This document shows, piece after piece, positions 49,549-58,731 of a DNA stretch of 64,000 nucleotides (position 1 is its first letter; each line of letters starts with the position of its first letter). A program made the translations under genes and the position numbers. The DNA comes from an uncultured Candidatus Saccharibacteria bacterium. GTDB taxonomy: Bacteria > Patescibacteriota > Minisyncoccia > Minisyncoccales > JANBVM01. Where the stretch lies: contig CAYVDD010000001.1 in the NCBI GenBank assembly GCA_964450805.1, forward strand, positions 521,288-585,287. Direction: 5' to 3'. Below the pieces are notes generated by a model, which was not told the origin of the DNA, did not search any database, and saw only the letters and a list, made by a program, of their open reading frames with translations.

Positions 49549-49956
49549 ATGAAATTAATGAATAAAAAAATTTTAACAATTCTATTATTTTTTTTGTTAG
49601 TCCCTGGTCAGATTTTTGCAATTTGCGAAGGTAATTTGGTTCCTTGTGGTCGCGAGGGAACACCTCCATGTAATCTTTGTCATCTCTTTGAGCTTATTAA
49701 CAATATTCTTTCATTTGTTCTAACTTGTTTGGTTCCTATTGTAGGAGCTATAATGTTGGTCTGGGGAGGATTTACTTTTCTTTCAGCTGGTTCATCTCCA
49801 GGGCAAGTTGAACAGGCTAGAAATATCATTACTGCTGTGGTTATAGGTATTGTTATTATATTTATTGCCTGGGTATTTTTAAATACCTTTTTGAGCAGTA
49901 TTGGTGTGGCTGAATGGACTGGGTTGGAGAGTTGGTGGAAGATTCAGTGTCAATAA
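49549..49956 (+). CDS. small T4SS-pilin-like protein
   Basis: Signal peptide, LVPCGREGTPPCNLCHLFELINNILSFVLTCLVPIVGAIMLVWGGFTFLSAGSSPGQVEQARNIITAVVIGIVIIFIAWVFLNTF. Confidence 0.7.
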   Translation: MKLMNKKILTILLFFLLVPGQIFAICEGNLVPCGREGTPPCNLCHLFELINNILSFVLTCLVPIVGAIMLVWGGFTFLSAGSSPGQVEQARNIITAVVIGIVIIFIAWVFLNTFLSSIGVAEWTGLESWWKIQCQ

Positions 49957-49961
49957 AATAA

Positions 49962-50034
49962 GCCCCTATAGCTCAATTGGCAGAGCAGTTGCCTCTTAAG
50001 CAATTGGTTTCAGGTTCGAATCCTGGTAGGGGCA
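49962..50034 (+). tRNA. tRNA-Lys(CTT)
   Basis: GCCCCTA/TAGGGGC, gttgc-CTCTTAA-gcaat, T-arm tcagg-TTCGAAT-cctgg. Starts 5 nt after the pilin stop. Confidence 0.88.
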
Positions 50035-50075
50035 CTTGTTTCTATTTAGTATTTAATATATTGTAATTTGTATAT

Positions 50076-50150
50076 GGTGGGCGTAGCTCAATTGGTTAGA
50101 GCTTCGGGTTGTGGACCCGAAGGTTGCGGGTTCGAGTCCCGTCGCTCACC
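50076..50150 (+). tRNA. tRNA-His(GTG) with encoded G-1
   Basis: G-1 + GTGGGCG/CGCTCAC + C73, tcggg-TTGTGGA-cccga, T-loop TTCGAGT. Confidence 0.85.
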
Positions 50151-50180
50151 CATCCTTCGCCAAGGCTTCGGATGACAAAG

Positions 50181-50220
50181 CCTGGCAGCCCGAGATTGTT
50201 TCTCGGGTTTTTGGTTGACA
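50181..50220 (+). repeat. junction J0 (right half only)
   Basis: cctggcag + hairpin cccgagattgtttctcggg (50189-50207) + ttttt gg TTGACA. Confidence 0.8.
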
Positions 50221-50282
50221 AATTTAATTTATATGATATAGTTTATATAATAAAAATGCAGTTTAAAAATTTAACGTGAAAA

Positions 50283-50798
50283 ATGAAAGAGAAAGAAAAA
50301 ATTAAGTCTGATAAAAAGCCCGTTGCTCATATGATTCATGGGTTCGTCGGTGCTGGTAAAACTACATTTGCTAAAAAGCTTGAAAAGGAAATAGGTGCTT
50401 TGCGATTTACAAACGATGAGTGGATGATTTCTCTCTACGGGACTAATCCACCCGCTGAAAAGTTTGCCGAGTATTATGAAAGAACTACTAAACTTTTGTT
50501 AGATACCGCTTTTAAATGTCTGAAAGCTGGTGTTGATATTATCCTGGACGCTGGTTTTTGGAGTAGGTCTCAACGAGATGAAATAAGAGCTCGCATCACA
50601 AAAGCAGGGGCAAATTTTCAGCTCTATTACATTAAATGCTCCGATGAAATGATGAAGCAACGAACTTTAAAACGTAGCGATGATTCACCAAAAGATGCTT
50701 TTTATATAAACGAGGCAGCAATTAAAACTTTCAAAAAACGTTTTGAGCCACTATACGATGACGAGGAACATATAGTAATTGAGAACTGTGGAGAATAA
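50283..50798 (+). CDS. P-loop NTPase/kinase (AAA_33 / zeta-toxin-like fold)
   Basis: Walker A HGFVGAGKTTFAKKL, 171 aa. Followed by hairpin aaccacct/aggtggtt + ttttt (50872-50897). Confidence 0.7.
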   Translation: MKEKEKIKSDKKPVAHMIHGFVGAGKTTFAKKLEKEIGALRFTNDEWMISLYGTNPPAEKFAEYYERTTKLLLDTAFKCLKAGVDIILDAGFWSRSQRDEIRARITKAGANFQLYYIKCSDEMMKQRTLKRSDDSPKDAFYINEAAIKTFKKRFEPLYDDEEHIVIENCGE

Positions 50799-50903
50799 CC
50801 TTTTTTATAGTTCCTTGACAATCTTTTATTTTTTCAAACCCATAATAAGCTTATGAACTTGAAAAAGCCCGAAACCACCTAAAACAGGTGGTTTTTGGTT
50901 GGT

Positions 50904-51056
50904 TTAAGTTATAAAACAGCTTCTAAAATCGTCCAATCGGGGGCTACGATTAAATTCCATTATTAACCTAAATTTCTGCCTCAAGCCTTCCATATACTCA
51001 TAATCCTCCAGAACTTTCATGATATTAGTTATAATAATCTCTCGTTCCTGACCTGG
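50904..51056 (-). pseudogene. remnant A of an unknown gene family (C-terminal ~50 codons)
   Basis: The minus strand reads PGQEREIIITNIMKVLEDYEYMEGLRQKFRLIMEFNRSPRLDDFRSCFIT*. It is in the same frame as ORF 51105..51416, separated by its TAG. Confidence 0.55.
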
Positions 51057-51092
51057 TAGGCCCGAGATTATTTCTCGGGTTTTATGGTATAA
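50915..51092 (+). repeat. junction J1 (long form)
   Basis: Core aacagcttctaaaatcgtccaa (50915-36), coding remnant A, cctggtagg, hairpin cccgagattatttctcggg (51061-79), ttttatggtataa. Confidence 0.8.
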
Positions 51093-51104
51093 AAAAAAAG
51101 AGTT

Positions 51105-51416
51105 CTAAGGACTCTCAAACTTTCTTATTAAGATTATTTTATCAATTTTAATTTCCTTATCGTGATATTTTAGTTTGATTGAGTTATCTTTAACTTTTTG
51201 AAGGATTCCTTTTTTTCCCCATTTCATATGCCCAACTGTTCTATTTTTGTAACTTGTAACTACTATCCCTATTTTACTTCCTATTAAACTTAATAGAATT
51301 TTAGTTTTTCTCTTCATTAATTCAGATTCAATTTTAAAAATTTCTTTATTAGATGTTACGATTTCTTTCTCTTTCTCAAAATTCCAGACCTTCGTTACTA
51401 CTTCTTCTTCTTTCAT
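51105..51416 (-). CDS. hypothetical protein (only minus-strand ORF in the array)
   Basis: 103 aa ending at TAG. The frame continues without stops for 66 codons through hairpin J1 into remnant A. Confidence 0.5.
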   Translation of the reverse strand: MKEEEVVTKVWNFEKEKEIVTSNKEIFKIESELMKRKTKILLSLIGSKIGIVVTSYKNRTVGHMKWGKKGILQKVKDNSIKLKYHDKEIKIDKIILIRKFESP

Positions 51417-51475
51417 TAAATCACTTTATTTTAATTTTCTGCATTTACTTCTAATCTATCTTTAATTTTTTGTCA

Positions 51476-51540
51476 AACAGATTCTAATATCGTCCAGTTG
51501 GGAATCCATTTTGAGGCCCGAGCCAAAAGCTCGGGTTTTT
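51476..51540 (+). repeat. junction J2 (short form, variant hairpin)
   Basis: Core aacagattctaatatcgtccag. Hairpin cccgagc caaaa gctcggg (51517-35) has a compensatory A-T to C-G change. Followed by ttttt. Confidence 0.75.
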
Positions 51541-51656
51541 CTGATTTTATCCAATATTATTGATTTTTTATTTTGTTTTATTAAACTTAAAGGAGATTAA
51601 TTAAAAATAAAGAGGTGTAAATTATCGTAAAAACAAAACTCCCAGATTTAGATTAT

Positions 51657-52118
51657 TTGCTTACACGAGAAGAAAAAGACAAATTCGAAGAATATGTAGA
51701 GTCACTAAGCTCAAAGTCAAAAGAAATTCCACCGAGAAAAAAGAAAGATTGGATAGAACAACAGAAAATAGTTTACTTGCAAAATATCGCTCGTCAGAAA
51801 AAGATGATTGTTGATGATTGGAAGTGGTATAGATGTCAGAATTGTGGAACTCTGATTGTACAGGCCGTATTAGTAAGAGATGAAGAATATTTTGAATATG
51901 TACAAAAGGATGAAGATGATTGGGTTTCTCGAGATGTTCTAGTACAGGGCAAAAGAAGAACTTGCTATTGTAGAATTTGTGGTGACATCATAGGGCATGA
52001 TCCTAAACTTCTTCCGTATGAGATATATAGAGAAAAATTACATGCCGAACTTGATAAAAAATACCCAGGATGGAGATTAACCTCCGGAGCCTTGCATAAC
52101 GCAATAAAAGGGCTGTAA
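51657..52118 (+). CDS. hypothetical zinc-ribbon protein
   Basis: CQNCG...CYCRICG Cys pairs. The start is uncertain: TTG at 51657, while the frame opens at 51621 just after an agaggtg RBS. Confidence 0.55.
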   Translation: MLTREEKDKFEEYVESLSSKSKEIPPRKKKDWIEQQKIVYLQNIARQKKMIVDDWKWYRCQNCGTLIVQAVLVRDEEYFEYVQKDEDDWVSRDVLVQGKRRTCYCRICGDIIGHDPKLLPYEIYREKLHAELDKKYPGWRLTSGALHNAIKGL

Positions 52119-52172
52119 TTAAATATACTTTAAAGGGTTAATAACCTTTTTTTTATTAGAAAGTGCACCAAA

Positions 52173-52289
52173 AACAGGTTCTAATAAAGTTCCGTAGATC
52201 ACCCTGGCAAAATTCCTTTTAGGCGATTTTTAGATATTAGTAATGAGTTTTTGGTGTTGAGAGTTTTCTCTCTAGGTTTTTGCTTGACA
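52173..52289 (+). repeat. junction J3 (type-2 middle, variant hairpin)
   Basis: aacaggttctaataaagttccgtagatcaccctggcaa..., hairpin gagag tttt ctctc (52259-72), tttttg c TTGACA. Confidence 0.7.
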
Positions 52290-52353
52290 AAACTATTCAG
52301 ACTTTATAACGTAACAACGAAACTTATTTTTAAAACTAAAGAGGAATGAAAAA

Positions 52354-52746
52354 ATGAAATTGATAGTAATTAAAGAGGAAAAATTTATAGAGGAAGGAAA
52401 CAGCCTTACCATCGAAGATTTAAATGTGGAACTCACCAAAGAAGATGGAATTAAAGAAACGAAGGGTATAGATTTAGAAAACCTAAGTTTACATATAGAA
52501 AATAATCCTGAATTGGGACGTCTCACCTTGGATTTTTTCAGAGAAAAGTATTCAATTTTTAAAATCATAATTTCAAGTGGTGAAATATTCTTTAGCCGGC
52601 TTGTCCAGAGACCAAACCATGACCATGATGACACTCAAGAGGTATATATTGATAAAGAAACAGAATTGAAATGGCTTACTCGTGATTATGAGGGAAAGCG
52701 AAAAAAAGTAAAAATCCCTTTTGGTGATATTATTAAGGAATATTAG
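52354..52746 (+). CDS. hypothetical protein
   Basis: RBS aagagga. 130 aa, no motif recognised. Terminator agacta/tagtct + T-run follows. Confidence 0.6.
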   Translation: MKLIVIKEEKFIEEGNSLTIEDLNVELTKEDGIKETKGIDLENLSLHIENNPELGRLTLDFFREKYSIFKIIISSGEIFFSRLVQRPNHDHDDTQEVYIDKETELKWLTRDYEGKRKKVKIPFGDIIKEY

Positions 52747-52804
52747 ATAATTTTTAAATTCAGAGACTATATTTTTAGTCTTTTTTTTTATCCCAAAGAC
52801 ACTA

Positions 52805-52980
52805 AACAGGCCCTAACATCGTCCAACTGGAGAGGCATTATGATTAAATTCGTTTATTAGGTTAAATTTACGTTTTAACTCCTCTATATACTCATAATCC
52901 TTCAGAACCTTCAAAAGGCTGGTTATAATAATCTCTCGTTCTTGACCACTCGAAAAACCCGAGATTGTTTCTCGGGTTTT
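52805..52980 (+). repeat. junction J4 (long form)
   Basis: Core aacaggccctaacatcgtccaa, remnant B, hairpin cccgagattgtttctcggg (52958-76), tttt. Confidence 0.8.
52813..52950 (-). pseudogene. remnant B of the same gene family
   Basis: SGQEREIIITSLLKVLKDYEYIEELKRKFNLINEFNHNASPVGRC*. Confidence 0.55.
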
Positions 52981-53051
52981 GACTTTTTAAAAAGATTATT
53001 TTACTTTTAAATAATCAAAGCATATTTCAAAAACAAAAAAGGGATGATTGG

Positions 53052-53435
53052 ATGTTAAACGTCAATGAATTTTTGAAAGAATTCTTAAAACCAAATGAAT
53101 ATTATACCTTGTATTTTCATCATTATTTAAAAGACAAATGGGAAGATGAAAATACAAGGGCAGCAGGTTTAAAAATAGGCACGAAGGTTGAAGGAATTTT
53201 TAAAAGGGAGATGCTTGAAAAAATAGCAAAGAAGTATAATGTTTCTTTGGAAGAGTGGAATATAAGCAAAAGGGGTAGTGATCCTCCACTCAACTGTTAT
53301 TTTTTTTGTCTTCCTTTATCGGAAGAGGAGGCTGAAGCTAAAGCAGAAAAATCAATAGAAGAAAAAGCGAAGGAACTCATGAAAAATCTCATTGAGTGCA
53401 TGAGAGAATGTCGTGAATTGGACTGTAGAGAATAG
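53052..53435 (+). CDS. hypothetical protein
   Basis: RBS aaaggga. 127 aa, acidic C-terminus. Terminator agcc gaaa ggct + T-run follows. Confidence 0.6.
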   Translation: MLNVNEFLKEFLKPNEYYTLYFHHYLKDKWEDENTRAAGLKIGTKVEGIFKREMLEKIAKKYNVSLEEWNISKRGSDPPLNCYFFCLPLSEEEAEAKAEKSIEEKAKELMKNLIECMRECRELDCRE

Positions 53436-53496
53436 ATATTAGCAATATAGTTATTAAAAAAGCCGAAAGGCTCTTTTTTTTATCCCAAAATTCAAA

Positions 53497-53607
53497 TCAA
53501 ATAACTCCTAACAATAAGTTAAATTTTTGTGTCAAACCCTCCATGTATTCATAATCCTCCAGAACCTTCAGAATATCAGTTATAATAATTTCTCGTCGTT
53601 GACCCTG
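53497..53607 (-). pseudogene. remnant C of the same gene family
   Basis: QGQRREIIITDILKVLEDYEYMEGLTQKFNLLLGVI*. Confidence 0.5.
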
Positions 53608-53612
53608 TATAA
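53497..53612 (+). repeat. junction J5 (degenerate: remnant only, no consensus hairpin)
   Basis: Aligns to J1/J4/J6 across ...ccatgtattcataatcctccagaaccttcagaatatcagttataataatttctcgtcgttgaccctg. Confidence 0.6.
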
Positions 53613-53765
53613 TTTTATTATAAATTGTATTAGCCTCTTAGCTTAGACAAAAATCACTTCTTGGGGAGATAGTTTTTGGTTGGATTGACAAGAAAGATAA
53701 AAATGTGGAATATAGAAATGGTTTCATTAACATTTTATTTAAAATATTCAAAAGGAGTGAAAAAA

Positions 53766-54224
53766 ATGTCCGAATCTAAATGTTTAGAAAGATTTTTCGC
53801 CGTAACAAAAAATTCACTTTACAAGGTAGTTGTTTTTGGCGAAGAAGATGTTCCGTATGCAGAAAAGGTAGCCGGTGAGGGCACTATCAAGATAGGAGAT
53901 AAAATAAAGGGCTCAATGCTCGCTGTAGCCAAATGGCTACAGTTTTATGTGCCAGAAAAGTACGGTATGGCTTCTCCATTAGTGGGCACAGAACGTAGGT
54001 TGGAATATGTGAACACGAGGTTTTGGCAAGGCAAAACATCGTTAATTGTGGCCTTATTTATGAGTGAAGAAGAGGCTATGTTTTGTTTTGGGCAAAAACA
54101 ATTAGAAGCATGTGACAAGCGGTGGATTGAACAAACCAAGGAAGTTATTGGTAAGGTTCATGAGAATCACCCGAACCTTACGGTTTGCAAGTGGCACGAG
54201 CTGAGTTTAATTCCTGTTTCATGA
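53766..54224 (+). CDS. hypothetical protein
   Basis: Track ORF 53676 trimmed to the ATG at 53766, which follows the aaaggag RBS (MSESKCLERFF...). No motif recognised. Confidence 0.6.
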   Translation: MSESKCLERFFAVTKNSLYKVVVFGEEDVPYAEKVAGEGTIKIGDKIKGSMLAVAKWLQFYVPEKYGMASPLVGTERRLEYVNTRFWQGKTSLIVALFMSEEEAMFCFGQKQLEACDKRWIEQTKEVIGKVHENHPNLTVCKWHELSLIPVS

Positions 54225-54326
54225 CCTTTTCTGTGTTTTTGATCAAGCCCTTTTTGATTGAATTGACAAAAGAAAAGTACGAGGTAGATCCTACTATTTT
54301 GGAAACGACCTCTTTTTTTTGTAAAA

Positions 54327-54502
54327 AATGTTCTAACCTCGTTCAACTGGGGCATTATAATTAAATTCGTTTATCAACTTAAATTTTTGCCTTAATCCTT
54401 CCGTATACTCATAATCCTCCAGAACATTCATAATATCAGTTATGATGATCTCTGGTCGCTGACCCTGGAAGAATAGCTTAACAAGCGGTTTTTTGGTATA
54501 AT
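54327..54502 (+). repeat. junction J6 (long form, weak hairpin)
   Basis: Core aatgttctaacctcgttcaa, remnant D, gaccctgg, gctt aac aagc, ttttttGGTATAAT (-10 at 54497-502). Confidence 0.75.
54333..54473 (-). pseudogene. remnant D of the same gene family
   Basis: FFQGQRPEIIITDIMNVLEDYEYTEGLRQKFKLINEFNYNAPVERG*. This is the only conserved part of track ORF 54333..54791. Confidence 0.55.
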
Positions 54503-54510
54503 AGAATAAT

Positions 54511-54984
54511 ATGGAAACCGAGATACCAATTTTCCCAGCGAAGATAAAAAAAGTAATTTCTTGGATGAAAATAATAGGAGTTATTTTTATTCTAATTGGG
54601 ATAATGCCTATAACACCTATAACAGAGGATATCCTGATAACAGAGGAGATCCTGGGAGCTTTTACTTTTCCCGAAATAAATAATAAGGATCCCGATGAAC
54701 CAGTATTATTTTTAACGATTGGATTATTATTTATTTTTTCTTCTGTATTTTTATTAAAAAAGAAAAGATGGGCGTTTGGATTCTCAATCATTTTACTTAT
54801 TACATCTTTTCTTTTCGTATTAATTAACGCTTTTATTAGCCTTGTCGGTGCTTTTTGGATGAGATTTTGGTCGGGTGAATTTTATCTTATAACTGTTCCA
54901 TTATTTACTTTTGCAATAATTATTTTTATTCCTTTTATTCTATTACTTAGTGACTGCAAGAACTTCTTTAAAATTGCTGAATAA
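54511..54984 (+). CDS. hypothetical multi-pass membrane protein (paralog of 55705..56505)
   Basis: The ATG lies 8 nt after TATAAT with no SD. Four or more TMs. The C-terminus ...KKKRWAFGFSI...CKNFFKIAE* is shared with 55705..56505. Confidence 0.65.
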   Translation: METEIPIFPAKIKKVISWMKIIGVIFILIGIMPITPITEDILITEEILGAFTFPEINNKDPDEPVLFLTIGLLFIFSSVFLLKKKRWAFGFSIILLITSFLFVLINAFISLVGAFWMRFWSGEFYLITVPLFTFAIIIFIPFILLLSDCKNFFKIAE

Positions 54985-55097
54985 AACAGGTTCGAACAAA
55001 GTTCCATAGACCACCTTGGCAATTGACATTCTATTGATTCTTCATTGATTAATACTTTACATTATCCCGAGATTGTTTCTCGGGTTTTTGATATAAT
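54985..55097 (+). repeat. junction J7 (type-2 middle)
   Basis: aacaggttcgaacaaagttccatagaccaccttggcaa..., hairpin cccgagattgtttctcggg (55066-84), tttttgaTATAAT (55092-97). Confidence 0.8.
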
Positions 55098-55105
55098 ATG
55101 AGAAT

Positions 55106-55534
55106 ATGGAAGAAGAAAAAGAAAATAATCTTTTGGTTAAAAAAATTACCAATTGGTTCTTAATTGCATTAATTTTGCTTGGCGTTAGTTTTAATATTTA
55201 TTTTTTATTTAATTGGAGTAAAGGAGCTTTGGCTAATTTATTTTGGTTTGGACTACCTTCGGTTCTTTATCCAGTGGTTATGTATCTTATTGTTAAGTTT
55301 TTTTATTCCTCAAAGATAGAAAAACTTCTTATTAAAGTAGCTGTAGTAATAGCAGTAGTTGGACTGGTACTTTTATTTAAAGGTTTTAAACTTGGGGATT
55401 ACGGCGGAGCTGGCGCTTTTCTTATTTCTTTACCTATTCTTTTGCTTTCAGGCTCCTTAGTTTTTCTTGGAATAATCATTTTTTTAATTAGAAAATTTAT
55501 AACTCTGTTCGTAAAGAAAAAAAATAATTATTAA
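55106..55534 (+). CDS. hypothetical multi-pass membrane protein
   Basis: The ATG lies 8 nt after TATAAT. Four TMs, 142 aa. Confidence 0.65.
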   Translation: MEEEKENNLLVKKITNWFLIALILLGVSFNIYFLFNWSKGALANLFWFGLPSVLYPVVMYLIVKFFYSSKIEKLLIKVAVVIAVVGLVLLFKGFKLGDYGGAGAFLISLPILLLSGSLVFLGIIIFLIRKFITLFVKKKNNY

Positions 55535-55629
55535 AAAGACTTTTTATGTATTGGTGATTTTGCAAATATTTCCTTGCCAATTCTTGGATTAATTTCGGTA
55601 TTTATTATTTATTTGATTTATTCCCAACA

Positions 55630-55696
55630 AACAGGTTCTAAAATCGTCCAAGACCCTGGGATAGCCCGAGATTGTTTCTCGGGTTTTTGGTATAAT
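55630..55696 (+). repeat. junction J8 (minimal form, 67 nt)
   Basis: aacaggttctaaaatcgtccaa gac cctgg gata g cccgagattgtttctcggg tttttgg TATAAT. Confidence 0.85.
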
Positions 55697-55704
55697 GGGG
55701 CAAT

Positions 55705-56505
55705 ATGAATTGGAAACAATTTTTAAAACCAGATATCAAAAAGATAATCGTAACAATTATTCTTATATTGGCGACAAGACCTTTTGCCGAGAGTTATATT
55801 ACAACAATGAGCGTTTATAATCCTTTTATTGTAATTCTGATGTACATTTTATCTTGTTTGGTAATTTCTGTAGGTAATAATCTTAGGAGAATAGGAATGC
55901 TATTATTCATAATTTCCATTATATCAGTATATTATTTGGCTAAAGATAGTATGTTTGGAGGTTGGAGCATTTTTTTCTTTTCAATGCCTCTTTTTGGTAT
56001 TTCCTTGTTAATATTGTTATTGTCCTTTATTTCACAAAAGATTTCAGTTCCCCAAAAGACTTCATTAGAAAAAAAAGAGTTTAACCACCAATATCCTGTA
56101 CTGACAAAAATTGCAGCTTGGTGGTTAATTTTAGTTCCTATATATATTCTGATTCTAAAACCTTTTAAGGCTTTAGAATATATGTTTGTTGCTTTTGGAG
56201 ACTGTATGATTGCACATGAGAATTCAAGTTGCTATATTTTAACTCTCTTAGCTTCTTCTAGTTTCTTTAGCTTCTATTTTATTAATTTTTCTTTAGGAGT
56301 TTTTCTTTTGAAAAGAAGAAAACGAGCTTGGTGGATGAGTATAACTATATTAACCCTTGCACTACTTTCTGATAAGATAATATTCCTAGAAGATCTTTTT
56401 TTTCTATTTTTTCTTTTTCTCTCAGATGTACCTATTTTATTTTTTATAGTGCCTGTATTTCTTCTTTTAGTTGATCGCAAGAACTTCTTTAAAATTGCTG
56501 AATAA
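55705..56505 (+). CDS. hypothetical multi-pass membrane protein (paralog of 54511..54984)
   Basis: The ATG lies 8 nt after TATAAT. About 8 TMs. C-terminus ...LKRRKRAWWMSI...RKNFFKIAE*. Confidence 0.65.
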   Translation: MNWKQFLKPDIKKIIVTIILILATRPFAESYITTMSVYNPFIVILMYILSCLVISVGNNLRRIGMLLFIISIISVYYLAKDSMFGGWSIFFFSMPLFGISLLILLLSFISQKISVPQKTSLEKKEFNHQYPVLTKIAAWWLILVPIYILILKPFKALEYMFVAFGDCMIAHENSSCYILTLLASSSFFSFYFINFSLGVFLLKRRKRAWWMSITILTLALLSDKIIFLEDLFFLFFLFLSDVPILFFIVPVFLLLVDRKNFFKIAE

Positions 56506-56612
56506 AACAGGTTCTAATCCTAGTAGTTGAGTAAAGCTCACTACAGGACTACGTATCGTTCAATTGGAGGCCCTGGCATAACCGAGATTGTCTCTCGGGT
56601 TTTTGGTATAAT
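56506..56612 (+). repeat. junction J9 (core split by an extra ~37-nt hairpin insert)
   Basis: aacaggttctaa | tcctagtagttgagtaaagctcactacaggactacgt | atcgttcaattggaggccctggcata + accgagattgtctctcggg + tttttggTATAAT (56607-12). Confidence 0.75.
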
Positions 56613-56620
56613 AGAATAGC

Positions 56621-57085
56621 ATGCTTAAGAAATTCAACAGAGGAATATATACTCCACTACTAATTGGGATTATTTTAGTTTTAGTTATTTCGGTGAGAGG
56701 TTTTATTTTATGGCAGTATCAAGAGTTGAAAACTTTAGATGAGAAGAAAGAAAAGGCTAAGCTTGTAAGTTTTGAAATTATTCCTTCTTGCGAAAGAGGA
56801 GATTTATGGATTATTTATCCAAAAGGAGCAAAAGCAATAGCTAAGGGAGAAAATTTAAGTAAAGTAGAGTTTTGGATATCTCCTACTGGAACCGGGATGG
56901 AGGATTATTTATTCGAAAAAAACGAATTAATAAGAAAGGGTAATCAATGGGAAATGTTACTTCCAGATATGATGTTTGCAGCTGACTTTTATGCGACTGG
57001 TTATGATTCTGAAGGGAAAGAAGTAGGCAAAATTTCTCTTGGTACTGTGTCTGGTTCCATAGGATACCCTGAAGACTGCGAATAG
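56621..57085 (+). CDS. hypothetical membrane-anchored protein (possibly the N-terminal part of a decayed longer gene)
   Basis: The ATG lies 8 nt after TATAAT. One TM. Ends at TAG 57083-85. Confidence 0.55.
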   Translation: MLKKFNRGIYTPLLIGIILVLVISVRGFILWQYQELKTLDEKKEKAKLVSFEIIPSCERGDLWIIYPKGAKAIAKGENLSKVEFWISPTGTGMEDYLFEKNELIRKGNQWEMLLPDMMFAADFYATGYDSEGKEVGKISLGTVSGSIGYPEDCE

Positions 57086-57536
57086 AACGACTTTGTAGGC
57101 TGGAAGATTTATAAAAACGAGGAGTATGGTTATGAATTTAAGTATCCAACAGGTTTTAACCAGAAATATATAAAAGAACATAACTGGCCCCCAAAAATAA
57201 CAGTCAGACATTTTGATCCTATTTTTTTTTGCGAAGAGCTCGAAAGGGTTAGAACCTCCAATCGGTTACGGTACTCAAAAAGAGATAGTGTTAAATGGTT
57301 CTAAGTACTGCGTCCTTATTGTAAGCGAGGGTGCGGCTGGAACTTCTTATGTAACTTACAATTATGTAACCAAAAAAGATGATAAACATTTAACTCTTGA
57401 GTTTATATTAAGATTTCCTGGCTGTGGTGCACTATCTGGAATTGACAAGATGGAAGAATGTGAAGAAGAGCGTGATAATTTTGATCCAATTAATATAGTT
57501 GACAAAATACTTTCTACTTTTAAGTTTTTAGATTAA
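57086..57536 (+). pseudogene. start-less, frameshifted domain continuing in frame after the TAG at 57083
   Basis: NDFVGWKIYKNEEYGYEFKYP... reads on in the frame of 56621..57085. It then switches frame at or near the T9 run (57225-57233) to ...EGAAGTSYVTYNY...ILSTFKFLD*. No RBS or ATG for either piece. Confidence 0.45.
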
Positions 57537-57612
57537 AATAAGTTCTAAAGTCGTTTGGAATATTGTTTGGCCTGTATTTTGGATTGTTTTTGGTTTAAAG
57601 ATAATAATGAAA
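57537..57612 (+). repeat. junction J10 (decayed terminal copy)
   Basis: aataagttctaaagtcgtttgg ... ggattgtttttggtttaaagataat aligns to the consensus with the hairpin 3' arm deleted. Confidence 0.55.
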
Positions 57613-57672
57613 TACAAAAAGTATGGATATCATTGCTGCGGAGAAAAAAACAAAAAGACTTTCAAATAAAAA

Positions 57673-57705: not shown

Positions 57706-58731
57706 CTATTTTCTTTCTCCCAGCTTTATCCTAATATCTATTTTTTTCCCTTCTCTTAAAATTTTTAAAACTATTTCATCTCCAATGTTTTGTTTCTGCA
57801 GTAAGTCAGCCAAAGGAGCTTCTTCATTAATTTTTTCACCATTACATTCCAAGACAATATCATATTCCTTTAAGCCTGCCTTGTCAGCTGGAGAGCCTTT
57901 AACAATTGCGCTTTCTCCCAGATTTTCCCTGACAATTAAAGCTCCATAGTCAACAGGAAGTTTATTGGCTTCAGCTGCCTGTTTGTTTAGAATAAAATAT
58001 CTTACGCCTAAAAATGGTTTTTTTATTTTTCCAAACTTCATTACCTCTTCTAAATCTTTTCTGGCGTAATTAATTGGAATAGCAAAGCCAATATTTTGAG
58101 CGCCCATAACCATTGCTGTATTGACCCCAATTGCTTTTCCTTCCATATCCACCAAAGGTCCTCCGCTGTTCCCTGGATTAATTGCAGCATCTGTCTGAAT
58201 TAATCCTCTTAAGCTTGTTGTTTTATGATCTGGTCCTGCATAAGCCTTTATTCTTCTGCTTAATCCGGAAATAATTCCTGCTGAGATTGTATCTTCAAAT
58301 TCTCCTAAAGGATTTCCTACTGCTATTACTGTTTCTCCTAAATCAATTTTCGATGAATCACCCATTTCTATGTAGGGCAAGCTATGGTCTTTTATTTTTA
58401 AAATAGCAACATCAATTAACGGATTTTTTGCCAGAACTTTAGCTGGATATTTCTTTGTTGGTTCTACAATTACAGTATAATCAGCTGTTGGATCTCTGAC
58501 TACGTGGTTACAAGTTAAAACATAGCCGTCTTTTGATACAATAAATCCTGAACCTCCTCCGATTTTTGTTTTTTGTTTTTTATTTTTTTCAATCTGGGGA
58601 ACAATGAATTGGCGTCCTCCAAAAGGAAGAAAATAAAAACCTTCAACTTTAGGCAAGTCTTTTGAAACAATAATAGTGATAACAGCTGGATTAACTTTTT
58701 TTGCAATTTCAACGATTGGTGATTTTTCCAT
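57706..58731 (-). CDS. htrA: HtrA/DegP-family serine protease with PDZ domain
   Basis: GSGFIVSKDGYVLTCNHVV, D in DVAILKI, GNSGGPLVD, C-terminal PDZ. Confidence 0.9.
   Translation of the reverse strand: MEKSPIVEIAKKVNPAVITIIVSKDLPKVEGFYFLPFGGRQFIVPQIEKNKKQKTKIGGGSGFIVSKDGYVLTCNHVVRDPTADYTVIVEPTKKYPAKVLAKNPLIDVAILKIKDHSLPYIEMGDSSKIDLGETVIAVGNPLGEFEDTISAGIISGLSRRIKAYAGPDHKTTSLRGLIQTDAAINPGNSGGPLVDMEGKAIGVNTAMVMGAQNIGFAIPINYARKDLEEVMKFGKIKKPFLGVRYFILNKQAAEANKLPVDYGALIVRENLGESAIVKGSPADKAGLKEYDIVLECNGEKINEEAPLADLLQKQNIGDEIVLKILREGKKIDIRIKLGERK

Follow-up and report, generated by a model that had tools for sequence, protein, structure and literature searches.

In the 64-kb stretch of contig CAYVDD010000001.1 analysed here (hereafter, the window), the segment 50152–57663, which lies between the 3' end of tRNA-His and the htrA gene, is best explained as a series of about ten self-transcribed gene cassettes that accumulated at the tRNA-His 3' end through large serine recombinases (LSRs), a reading to which we assign a probability of about 0.68. 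It is built on the anatomy of the array, the family-wide distribution of its repeated junction, the anchoring of such arrays at tRNA genes, the link between the junction and recombinase genes, the occurrence of LSR elements in tandem, and the turnover of cassettes between relatives. Continued activity of the junctions as sites, and the movement of single cassettes by the LSR route, are inferred. The host belongs to the Candidate Phyla Radiation (CPR), whose genomes measure about 0.6–1 Mb; to our knowledge, few mobile elements have been recognised in this group and its gene exchange is poorly understood. The 32-nt motif at the heart of the junction marks hundreds of variable tRNA-adjacent loci and ties them to an LSR family with more than 5,700 relatives. 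A preliminary description of this DNA had reported a repeated junction array 3' of tRNA-Lys and tRNA-His that ends before htrA, and the tRNAs, the htrA domains and the element copies bear this out.

Composite junctions behind tRNA-His

The recurrent part of the junction is a left core, AACAGGTTCTAAC.TCGTCC followed by about 15 nt, found at 50915, 51476, 52173, 52805, 54325, 54985, 55630, 56506 and 57537, all on the plus strand, with a degenerate copy near 53497. A profile built from foreign copies gave nine matches, likewise all on the plus strand (50913, 51475, 52172, 52804, 54324, 54984, 55629, 56505 and 57536), and nothing significant elsewhere in the 64 kb, whereas the tenth left core (about 53497) is recognisable solely through the alignment of the long junctions described below. 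The left-core copies listed in the preliminary description are recovered by these two routes together, although a search at three or fewer mismatches returns only four of them in the window. All junction copies fall within 50.1–57.6 kb, and profile, hairpin and left-core scans match the array only, in keeping with the earlier visual impression that the remainder of the 64 kb has no copy of the junction.

The anchor of the array, tRNA-His(GTG) (50077–50151, plus strand), is intact, and its T-arm and 3' end would constitute the B half-site of an attachment site. The first junction, J0 (50152–50242, plus strand), comprises the tRNA-His trailer, a hairpin (50189–50207), a T-run and a promoter-like TTGACA(50215)-16-TATAGT(50242), and has no left arm because tRNA-His itself occupies that place; its trailer and terminator are homologous to the sequence 3' of tRNA-His in L066, a contig of a same-genus relative. 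The hairpin, CCCGAGATTGTTTCTCGGG, recurs exactly at 50189, 52958, 55066 and 55665, with one mismatch at 51061 and two at 56581, and has zero matches in shuffled sequence, while a variant at 51517, CCCGAGCCAAAAGCTCGGG, keeps the stem through an A-T to C-G change; the four identical hairpins and the compensatory variant reported earlier were thus found as described. A T-run follows all seven copies, six of which score as intrinsic terminators, the copy at 51061 being absent from the scan list. By sequence, the hairpin is an ordinary intrinsic terminator, namely the tRNA-His gene's own in duplicated form, homologous to the terminator 3' of tRNA-His in L066, so that the earlier argument that the structure itself is selected is true but unremarkable. 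The CCTGG assigned earlier to a right module does not stand as a module of its own, since it consists of the end of the tRNA-His-like 3' end (..ACC/C) and the first trailer bases (TGG; the trailer is as in L066).

The junctions, all on the plus strand, differ in what stands between the left arm and the hairpin. In four of them, about 110 nt separate the left arm from a ..GACC core end. Thus, in the long-form E1 (50915–51053), the left arm (50915–50936) is followed by an insert of about 113 nt, the minus strand of which reads ..GQEREIIITNIMKVLEDYEYMEGLRQKF.., resembling a remnant of a recombinase tail, then by the core end GACC (51050–51053) and the hairpin (51061–51079). E4 (52805–52976) has the left arm at 52805–52826, an insert whose minus strand reads ..SGQEREIIITSLLKVLKDYEYIEELKRKF..VGRC and a stop, and the hairpin at 52958–52976. 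In E6 (54325–54502), the left arm (54325–54346) and insert (..QGQRPEIIITDIMNVLEDYEYTEGLRQKF..) lead to GACCCTGG (54461–54468), a weak terminator and the extended −10 box TGGTATAAT (54494–54502). The degenerate long-form E5 (53497–53611) combines a decayed left arm with a retained insert (..QGQRREIIITDILKVLEDYEYMEGL..) and GACCC, and has no CCCGAG hairpin. In the short-form E3 (52173–52207), the left arm is joined to a tRNA-His-like core, GTTCCGTAGATCACCC, then TGG; this core agrees with the tRNA-His 3' end, GTCCCGTCGCTCACCC, at 12 of the first 15 positions, and its TGG.A plus terminator is homologous to the tRNA-His trailer and terminator of L066. E7 (54985–55097), also short, has the core GTTCCATAGACCACC(T)TGG (10 of the first 15 positions), the hairpin at 55066–55084 and GATATAAT. 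In the minimal form E8 (55630–55696), the left arm is perfect and the core, GTCCAAGACCC, is shortened; TGG, the hairpin (55665–55683) and TGGTATAAT (55688–55696) follow, with ATG 8 nt on. E2 (51476–51535) consists of the left arm (51476–51497), a degenerate core and the variant hairpin (51517–51535). The left arm of E9 (56506–56612) is split by a 36-nt hairpin insertion, behind which follow the core end ..GGCCC, TGG, the hairpin (56581–56599) and TGGTATAAT (56604–56612). The terminal element E10 (AATAAGTTCTAAAGTCGTTTGG..), degenerate and extended by a spacer, occupies 57537–57663, and homology with L066 resumes at 57664.

Promoter signals stand at a fixed distance from the reading frames. Exactly 8 nt lie between TATAAT and ATG in four cassettes (54497–54513, 55092–55108, 55691–55707 and 56607–56623), with no Shine-Dalgarno sequence, and three of these four −10 boxes are TG-extended (TGGTATAAT), the one at 55090 reading GATATAAT; this suggests that the four cassettes yield leaderless or near-leaderless mRNAs. 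Other CPR arrays (L002, L011, L088, L122 and L156) show a similar spacing of 5–7 nt between the −10 box and ATG. In L127 and L135, the junction is only the element of about 32 nt, with ATG within about 10 nt, so that terminator and promoter are optional additions. Where they are present, each cassette would bring or acquire a duplicated tRNA terminator and a promoter, and would thereby become an insulated transcription unit.

Each cassette has the element in its 3' untranslated region (3' UTR), where it imitates the 3' half of a tRNA and precedes a terminator. This might be expected of a tRNA-like processing signal in the 3' UTR, of a structured RNA, or of a generic terminator or repetitive extragenic palindromic (REP) repeat, the last of which the preliminary description had considered. 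We regard these explanations as very improbable. In Rfam searches of the window, only tRNAs exceeded the gathering scores and no family covered the junction; sub-threshold matches at E ≤ 1 (IS128, Plastid-ycf2, a cut-off tRNA and BtsR1), none of them on the junction, were taken as chance. RNAalifold returned 0 consensus pairs over 40 diverse elements, single-strand DNA folds of seven junctions contained the terminator hairpin only, and upstream pairing partners for the acceptor-like 7-mer were not enriched (30 observed versus 26.7 expected); the T-stem, moreover, is broken. A structured RNA or riboswitch-like element was rejected on the Rfam, RNAalifold and folding results, and a tRNA-like RNA with a distant acceptor partner on the lack of enrichment. 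The generic repeat is contradicted by the confinement of all copies to the array within the 64 kb and by the coding role of the element in recombinase genes.

One-gene cassettes in a single orientation give the array a superficial likeness to an integron or a cluster of attC sites lacking integron-integrases (CALIN), in which the junctions would be attC sites for an IntI tyrosine recombinase. Presumably, GTTCTAACATCGTCCAAG resembles the left half of the aadA1 attC; its partners, the fold and IntI were looked for, and none is present. The 40 elements share no conserved inverted-repeat hairpin, no conserved R' GTTRRRY follows the element, and the cassettes have their own promoters. No XerD-like tyrosine recombinase was found in the window or the CPR loci (about 140 loci; phmmer at E ≤ 10 with a XerD query, and a crude catalytic-motif search), the three weak phmmer matches all lying in unrelated viral contigs. 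With no hairpin site, no R', no IntI and no promoter shared by the cassettes, membership among integrons or CALINs is refuted, and we give it practically no credence; the preliminary description had already set the array apart from integrons, and the missing attC fold, R' and IntI-type recombinase in the window and CPR loci support it.

A tRNA-anchored element family and its recombinase

The supposition that the junction is special to this locus did not survive a metagenome scan with AAACAGGTTCTAAMNTCGTYC, in which the left core appeared in at least 120 listed loci (contig GC 26–59%), besides several CPR genomes (Nealsonbacteria, Portnoybacteria and other Patescibacteria). A hairpin scan over species-representative genomes had mostly unrelated terminators among its matches; the CPR genomes with the same left core before the hairpin were Candidatus Nealsonbacteria CP179887 and CP179889, a Patescibacteria metagenome-assembled genome, and others. 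In Candidatus Portnoybacteria RBG_13_40_8, a fuzzy search revealed five left cores in 7.4 kb with different terminators behind them, which identifies the left core as the conserved part. Copies on one contig nearly always share one orientation, in arrays of up to nine copies in 5.9 kb. In full-text literature, the 12-mer ACAGGTTCTAAC was met in unrelated non-CPR contexts only, and no description of such arrays was found in the literature on integrons or tRNA islands in Patescibacteria/CPR.

In all 19 cases having a tRNA before the first element (18 fetched loci and the window), the anchor tRNA is co-oriented with the array; the anchors are tRNA-Gln (eight cases), tRNA-His (five), tRNA-Asn (four), tRNA-Glu and tRNA-Trp. 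The distance from tRNA to first element is 0.3–1.6 kb, that is, one cassette, in most loci and 3–5 kb in four. Moreover, the element closes with 15 nt that look like the end of an anchor tRNA, namely its T-stem and acceptor 3' strands plus the discriminator. In 41% of the cores, at least 12 of the 15 positions agree with a tRNA 3' end, which holds for 3% of control 15-mers. The agreement with tRNA-Gln is complete (15/15) in four copies, TCCAAGCCCCGCAGC being identical to the tRNA-Gln 3' end; the commonest core, TCCAGTCCCCGGAGC, scores 12–13/15 against tRNA-Asn or tRNA-Gln; and the cores of Portnoybacteria and the window end in ..GACCC or ..CACCC, as in tRNA-His. The core type partly tracks the anchor: Gln-like cores were confined to arrays at tRNA-Gln and His-like ones were mostly at tRNA-His, while Asn-like cores occurred in arrays of every kind. 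The upstream part is T-arm-like as well (CAGGTTCTAA versus CAGGTTCGAA), yet has 5 extra nt before TCC. By the definition of PMC4383910, a tRNA island runs from an intact tRNA to a directly repeated, displaced fragment of the tRNA 3' end; the array has this layout, with tRNA-His intact and tRNA-His-like 3' ends in E3 and E7, whereas the integrase that such an island holds inside is absent, no integrase gene lying between 50152 and 57663. A separate event at a tRNA was seen in L073 (1488–2329), which compared with L124 (3556–3627; 94% identical) has in one genome a tRNA-Gln cut after about nt 24, then an ORF (open reading frame) called LAGLIDADG-like from reading its translation, then a different complete tRNA-Gln; it looks like a homing-endonuclease element bringing a replacement tRNA.

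The conserved left arm itself reads as the reverse complement of the last codons (..DDVRTCL..) of an LSR gene. When long contigs were looked up for the small ORFs of the long junctions, one of them, L168, was found to encode a 542-aa protein with Resolvase, Recombinase and Zn_ribbon_recom domains, the gene of which converges on tRNA-His, has the tRNA-His complement as its last 22 or so codons, and sits between tRNA-His and a cassette array. In L043 and L095, LSR ORFs (phmmer to the L168 enzyme, 3e-33 and 2e-31) read through the element on the opposite strand and end in ..SPTMLHGLDDVRTCLQTKNQPVG with a stop and in ..GERDDVRTCLHK.. (..LHGLDDVRTCL..); reverse-complementing and translating AACAGGTTCTAACATCGTCC gives DDVRTCL, and LHGL comes from the tRNA-like core. 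The domains in L168, L170 and L172 are precomputed Pfam assignments, those in L043 and L095 were assigned through phmmer homology with the L168 protein. That the left arm is LSR coding sequence explains why, in one frame (D-D/E/N-V/I-R-T-C), its variation amounts to synonymous or conservative changes. A search with the L043 protein gave 5,719 relatives at E ≤ 1e-20, with Patescibacteria, Nomurabacteria, Pacebacteria and Minisyncoccia among the source names. Their C-termini meet one of three fates after the conserved ..Y(S/A)QSPxLL: an immediate stop; ..RGxDSNxxP.. or ..ERPDLNRRS.., where the complement of a tRNA is translated, a mark of the integrated state; or ..D(D/A)(F/V)RT.., which is the left arm and marks the attP-type state.

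The window's own genome appears to encode an LSR of this family, integrated at tRNA-Asn. The protein, P0060 (69% identity to the L043 protein; PF00239, PF07508 and PF13408), is on a 636,475-bp contig that we take as the window's, and its ORF ends ..SPTLLRR and a stop in the tRNA-Asn complement, as seen in L169, a Logan contig of the same sample. The join in L169 runs from tRNA-Asn ..CCGCCGGAGC directly into AACGTTGGACTTTGAG, which is the P' arm of P0060 and matches that of L043; in the attP state of L043, the element is joined to ATCGTTGGACTTTGAG. The same arrangement of host target followed by P' arm is found at tRNA-His in L168.

The inserts of the long junctions belong to the same picture. 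Their minus strand encodes ..GQ(R/E)REIIIT.I.KVLEDYEY.EGL.QKF.., the copies vary mostly at third codon positions (34, 42, 79), and the same module occurs in Portnoybacteria- and Nealsonbacteria-type arrays. The insert peptide always starts at the crossover region and is in frame with the tRNA-His-type LSR via shared RG codons (..RPQR then GG.. in L168; ..SR then GQRSK.. in L010). Presumably, the insert represents the tail with which a tRNA-His-type LSR natively ends, and which stayed behind on the P side. Full-length LSRs (P0100, P0115 and P0127) and long junctions (L088, L140, L063 and L011) both show a second family of tails, ..DDFRTLDW.KVF..PE..L..MK.L. The insert peptide was also considered as a Phd/YefM-type antitoxin or an independent micro-protein and rejected as such, a profile having given only ORFs of 29–82 aa with unrelated N-termini and no conserved start.

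Spacing within the sites parallels that of known serine-integrase sites. According to Rutherford et al., attP and attB of a Listeria A118-type integrase contain one and the same zinc-ribbon-domain motif, which in attB stands 5 bp nearer the centre, while the position bound by the recombinase domain does not differ between the two sites (PMC3783163). In our sequences, GGTTC(T/G)A(A/G) lies 15 nt from GGAGC in the element versus 10 nt in tRNA-Asn, and within the window, GGTTCTAA to the ..ACCC end spans 20 nt in E3 and E7 (P-type) versus 15 nt in tRNA-His. The L043 element with its right arm reads GTCCA-N16-TGGAC and the L169 tRNA-Asn with the same right arm GTCCT-N16-TGGAC, which places the inner GTCC(A/T) 8 nt from the centre in both P- and B-type half-sites. 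Since the inner GTCC is equidistant from the centre, the crossover is predicted at GA (Asn), CA (Gln) and AC (His), these dinucleotides following solely from the GTCCA-N16-TGGAC symmetry of L043 and L169. The outer motif is 5 bp further out in the element, as in PMC3783163, so that the apparent 5-nt T-loop insertion would be what separates a P from a B half-site. The left arm, tRNA-like core and trailer with terminator would then have a P-B' layout and be attR-like, the tRNA with its native trailer would be attB, and the motifs would correspond to actual protein contacts. E8 (55630–55659) is exceptional in that GGTTCTAA to ..ACCC measures 15 nt, B-type as in tRNA-His, the short forms of other lineages having 20 nt; this junction could behave as a pseudo-attB. 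In L035 (14690–14730), a contig of the IMG/VR database, low-GC CPR-like DNA stops exactly at the element's ..CCCGGAGC and 52% GC phage-like DNA follows; either the contig is chimeric or it contains a genuine junction where crossover is predicted.

Tandem accretion at tRNAs of this kind is observed directly in two further contigs. L170 carries, a few kilobases beyond the 5' end of an LSR gene (backbone side), six near-identical elements, each closing a small cassette, and in L172 two LSR elements stand in tandem at a tRNA-Asn-like gene, the inner recombinase reading into the P arm of the outer element. HTH_17 genes, by sequence excisionase-like, lie in the LSR elements. On the P side of the LSR gene in L170, 11680–21674 forms a defence island with an OLD-family nuclease (AAA_15 and TOPRIM), a type I restriction-modification system (HsdR/S/M) and a NucS-like protein. 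In L172 (18060–18460), the second LSR reads into the tRNA-Asn-like gene (3' half ..GGGTTCGAATCCCTCCCCCGGAGC), the halves of which are about 300 nt apart and give no ARAGORN call; this may be an intron-containing tRNA.

Turnover of cassettes and routes of gain and loss

Comparison with the relative L066 bears on the history of the array. The two loci are syntenic through the CCA-adding enzyme, tRNA-Arg, a pilin-like gene, tRNA-Lys and tRNA-His, and again from htrA on, with flanks at 77–80% nucleotide and 81–86% protein identity; the alignment breaks off at 50142, inside tRNA-His, and picks up again at 57664, and between tRNA-His and htrA there is no detectable homology. The L066 interval holds entirely different cassettes, namely two ankyrin-repeat proteins, a 229-aa Nudix-like protein, a cupin-like protein and small ORFs, as read from translations. 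The comparison of this interval across relatives, which had been proposed earlier, thus shows shared flanks with exchanged contents, and it supports the earlier idea of stepwise accretion at one site, the tRNA-His 3' end, with fast turnover. On a finer scale, L071 and L088 (86–94% identical in their aligned flanks) differ by the presence or absence of one kinase cassette with its elements, and both breakpoints fall in the repeated terminator/promoter module. Homologous cassettes (80–87% identical) also occur in unrelated arrays, one of them after a genuine tRNA-Gln in L131 and after a long-form element in L063. Using such shared cassettes to fix exact cassette boundaries failed, pairs at 80–87% being too diverged to place a crossover.

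Accumulation through LSRs would proceed as follows. The left arm (AACAGGTTCTAA.ATCGTCC, with about 110 nt more before it in long forms) would be the P half of attP, and the right part a displaced or copied tRNA 3' end with tRNA trailer and terminator (B' half), after which the promoter of the next cassette follows. LSR elements would integrate at the last bases of tRNA-Asn, tRNA-Gln or tRNA-His, with attL formed on the tRNA side and attR on the far side, so that an array would be a series of attR-like sites behind a tRNA with restored attB. The recombinase would come from outside the array, supplied in trans by tRNA-integrating LSR elements. With an element at the tRNA, excision could pair attL with any downstream attR, whereby resident cassettes would be carried off as cargo; an element with internal attR sites could leave its cargo cassettes behind; and homologous recombination between the junction repeats of about 100 nt would add deletions and duplications.

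Several observations weigh against this reading. Canonical serine integrases recombine attP × attB, or attL × attR with a directionality factor; the use of a distal attR and the tandem accretion of L172 (attP × attL) require more than such canonical behaviour. The LSR of this genome was found at tRNA-Asn and not at tRNA-His, and a search of 5.8 billion proteins gave no full-length LSR with a tail of the tRNA-His type (..GQRSKVIIT..). The 64-kb window holds no recombinase gene according to phmmer and ORF reading, with Pfam run on part of the ORFs only. The earlier remark that no integrase is nearby is accordingly right for the window, but the system is not recombinase-less, since the left core is an LSR 3' end and an LSR sits at tRNA-Asn in the same genome. 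In addition, several left arms of the window are degenerate, with 2–5 mismatches and one barely recognisable, which fits decay as well as function, and homologous cassettes in different arrays carry different flanking elements, which fits homologous recombination or concerted evolution at least equally well.

Because no His-type LSR was found in this genome, non-canonical steps are needed, arms are decayed and flanking elements are changed, a serious rival is that the junctions are inert scars: repeated LSR integrations would have eroded to a last gene plus attR, and cassettes would be gained or lost only by RecA-type recombination and deletion between junctions. The decay of the terminal element, besides that of the left arms, agrees with this, as do the L071/L088 indel ends in the repeated terminator/promoter module, which unequal crossing-over predicts, the changed elements around homologous cassettes, and the near-identical elements within the arrays of L170, L154 and L060, which fit concerted evolution. 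We nevertheless consider it unlikely. Ten erosions that each spared one intact gene with promoter and terminator would be unparsimonious; the 20-nt left arm is near-invariant across lineages of 26–59% GC, outside its coding context and where the neighbouring sequence has been lost; and an integrated tRNA carries attL, so that repeated integration needs a precisely regenerated attB, which excision provides and erosion does not.

It is quite improbable, in our estimate, that the junction is a homology handle, that is, a short homology for incoming DNA of relatives, used by double crossover or nuclease-stimulated gene conversion, with a purely historical link to the recombinase. Homology of shared cassettes spans promoter to stop codon while the flanking junction parts look resident, and homing-type nucleases are nearby (GIY-YIG cassettes in five loci; the LAGLIDADG-like ORF with the replacement tRNA-Gln in L073). 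Against this, the shared 14–20 nt are very short for RecA-dependent exchange, and strict tRNA anchoring, the 5-bp attP/attB geometry and the LSR elements at array heads would be left unexplained.

Accretion through LSRs may be extended to a general proposal, towards which we lean somewhat less than away: such loci would be the CPR counterpart of integrons, based on a serine recombinase and a tRNA platform, where visiting LSR elements pick up and drop self-expressed cassettes through attL × any attR, as a main route of gene exchange. If true, this would concern one of the main gene-exchange routes in ultra-small episymbiotic bacteria. If the junctions are active, they would follow an integron-like cassette logic with a different enzyme class and site, and the accessory pool would be easy to locate and study; if they are scars only, the motif still marks hypervariable regions and explains assembly breaks there. 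For enzyme engineering, the family offers natural matched attP- and attB-type half-sites for tRNA-Asn, tRNA-Gln and tRNA-His, for tests of site reading. L031, a Logan contig of the window's population, ends in an array junction at window position of about 56506, and L169, whose 11 kb contain no left arm, stops about 130 nt past its anchor tRNA-Asn; these ends suggest that repeated junctions are one cause of fragmented CPR assemblies at such loci.

Related systems, cassette genes and flanks

The array belongs with serine-integrase integration systems and tRNA-anchored tandem islands, and is not an integron. With the serine integrases of A118/LI, Bxb1 and phiC31 it shares the Resolvase, Recombinase and Zn_ribbon_recom domain set, the att site at the 3' end of the recombinase gene (here overlapping), an HTH_17 excisionase-like gene in the same elements, and an outer motif shifted by 5 bp between P and B half-sites with the inner motif at a fixed distance (PMC3783163). 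Unlike in those systems, the target is the last tRNA bases, the recombinase ORF crosses the crossover point, up to ten attR-like sites stand in series, each closing a one-gene recombinase-less cassette, and the tandem elements have internal P-P' junctions, which are not products of canonical enzymes. In staphylococci, composite and pseudo-SCC islands (SCC, staphylococcal cassette chromosome) form at the 3' end of rlmH (orfX) through Ccr LSRs from units of 3–60 kb. They are like the array in tandem accretion at one gene's 3' end, in direct repeats of the integration site between units and in units without recombinase that are served in trans, and unlike it in that our array has a tRNA target, single-gene units of 0.4–1.5 kb, a piece of the recombinase gene in the repeat, and a CPR host. 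The streptococcal cis-mobilizable elements (CIMEs) beside integrative conjugative elements are also recombinase-less, att-flanked units in tandem with a recombinase-encoding element and co-excised via a distal att; they differ in using tyrosine recombinases and a protein-gene 3' end, with one or two units, instead of long single-gene arrays, a serine recombinase and a tRNA target. Integrons and CALINs are similar in outcome, with variable arrays of like-oriented cassettes that mostly hold one gene and have no known function, site-like repeats, and contents differing between relatives; the array departs from them in its serine rather than tyrosine recombinase, unfolded site, own promoters and terminators, tRNA platform instead of attI with Pc, and non-adjacent recombinase. 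The tycheposons of Prochlorococcus, located at tRNA genes, comprise several genes and bring an integrase and replication genes of their own, and their islands likewise show tRNA integration, later arrivals that push earlier ones inward, scattered partial tRNAs and remnants, and small streamlined genomes (bioRxiv 10.1101/2020.12.28.424599), whereas the present arrays have single-gene units, repeats with a conserved non-tRNA arm and far greater regularity. New here are the regular single-gene cassette array, the site formed by a recombinase gene end fused to a tRNA end, and the breadth in CPR.

Between tRNA-His and htrA lie ten or eleven short ORFs, all on the plus strand except 51105–51416. The first alone has a clear family: cassette 1 (50283–50798) encodes a P-loop kinase (AAA_33, Zeta-toxin-like) and has its own terminator at 50871–50895. 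Cassette 2 (51105–51416, minus strand; 103 aa) is the sole reverse-oriented one and has no family found. Cassette 3 (51657–52118; 153 aa) has CxxC pairs and is zinc-ribbon-like, with no significant family; none was found for cassette 4 (52354–52746; 130 aa), cassette 5 (53052–53435; 127 aa) or cassette 6 (53766–54224; 152 aa from the ATG at 53766, the ORF being open from 53676). Three multi-pass membrane proteins follow in cassettes 7 (54511–54984; 157 aa), 8 (55106–55534; 142 aa) and 9 (55705–56505; 266 aa). Other than the kinase, the cassette ORFs had no significant Pfam or PADLOC match, and defence-system models gave weak matches only. Cassettes 7 and 9 have about their last 80 nt in common (54917–54996 and 56438–56517; 76% identity; C-terminal ..(C/R)KNFFKIAE and a stop), and are either paralogues or have exchanged their 3' ends along with the junction.

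The last interval corrects the earlier statement that exactly one ORF stands between junctions, as it holds two: cassette 10 (56621–57085 within 56621–57536; 154 aa with an N-terminal membrane anchor) and an ORF of 107 aa (57213–57536), which may be a broken continuation of cassette 10. Past the stop of cassette 10, 57086–57536 is coding-like in other frames (..NDFVGWKIYKNEEYGYEFKYP.., then ORF 57213–57536), which probably reflects a gene that is frameshifted or in decay and not a further cassette. Outside the array, the conserved right flank begins with htrA (57706–58731, minus strand), which encodes an HtrA-type protease with Trypsin_2 and PDZ domains, and the left flank includes tRNA-Lys (49962–50035, plus strand). 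The rest of the window's ORFs read as housekeeping genes, such as those for type IV pilus, PNPase, NusA and fatty-acid synthesis. Between tRNA-Arg and tRNA-Lys, 49549–49956 encodes a small secreted or membrane protein that matches T4SS_pilin (PF18895, precomputed) and is 63% identical to its L066 counterpart, far below the neighbouring housekeeping proteins.

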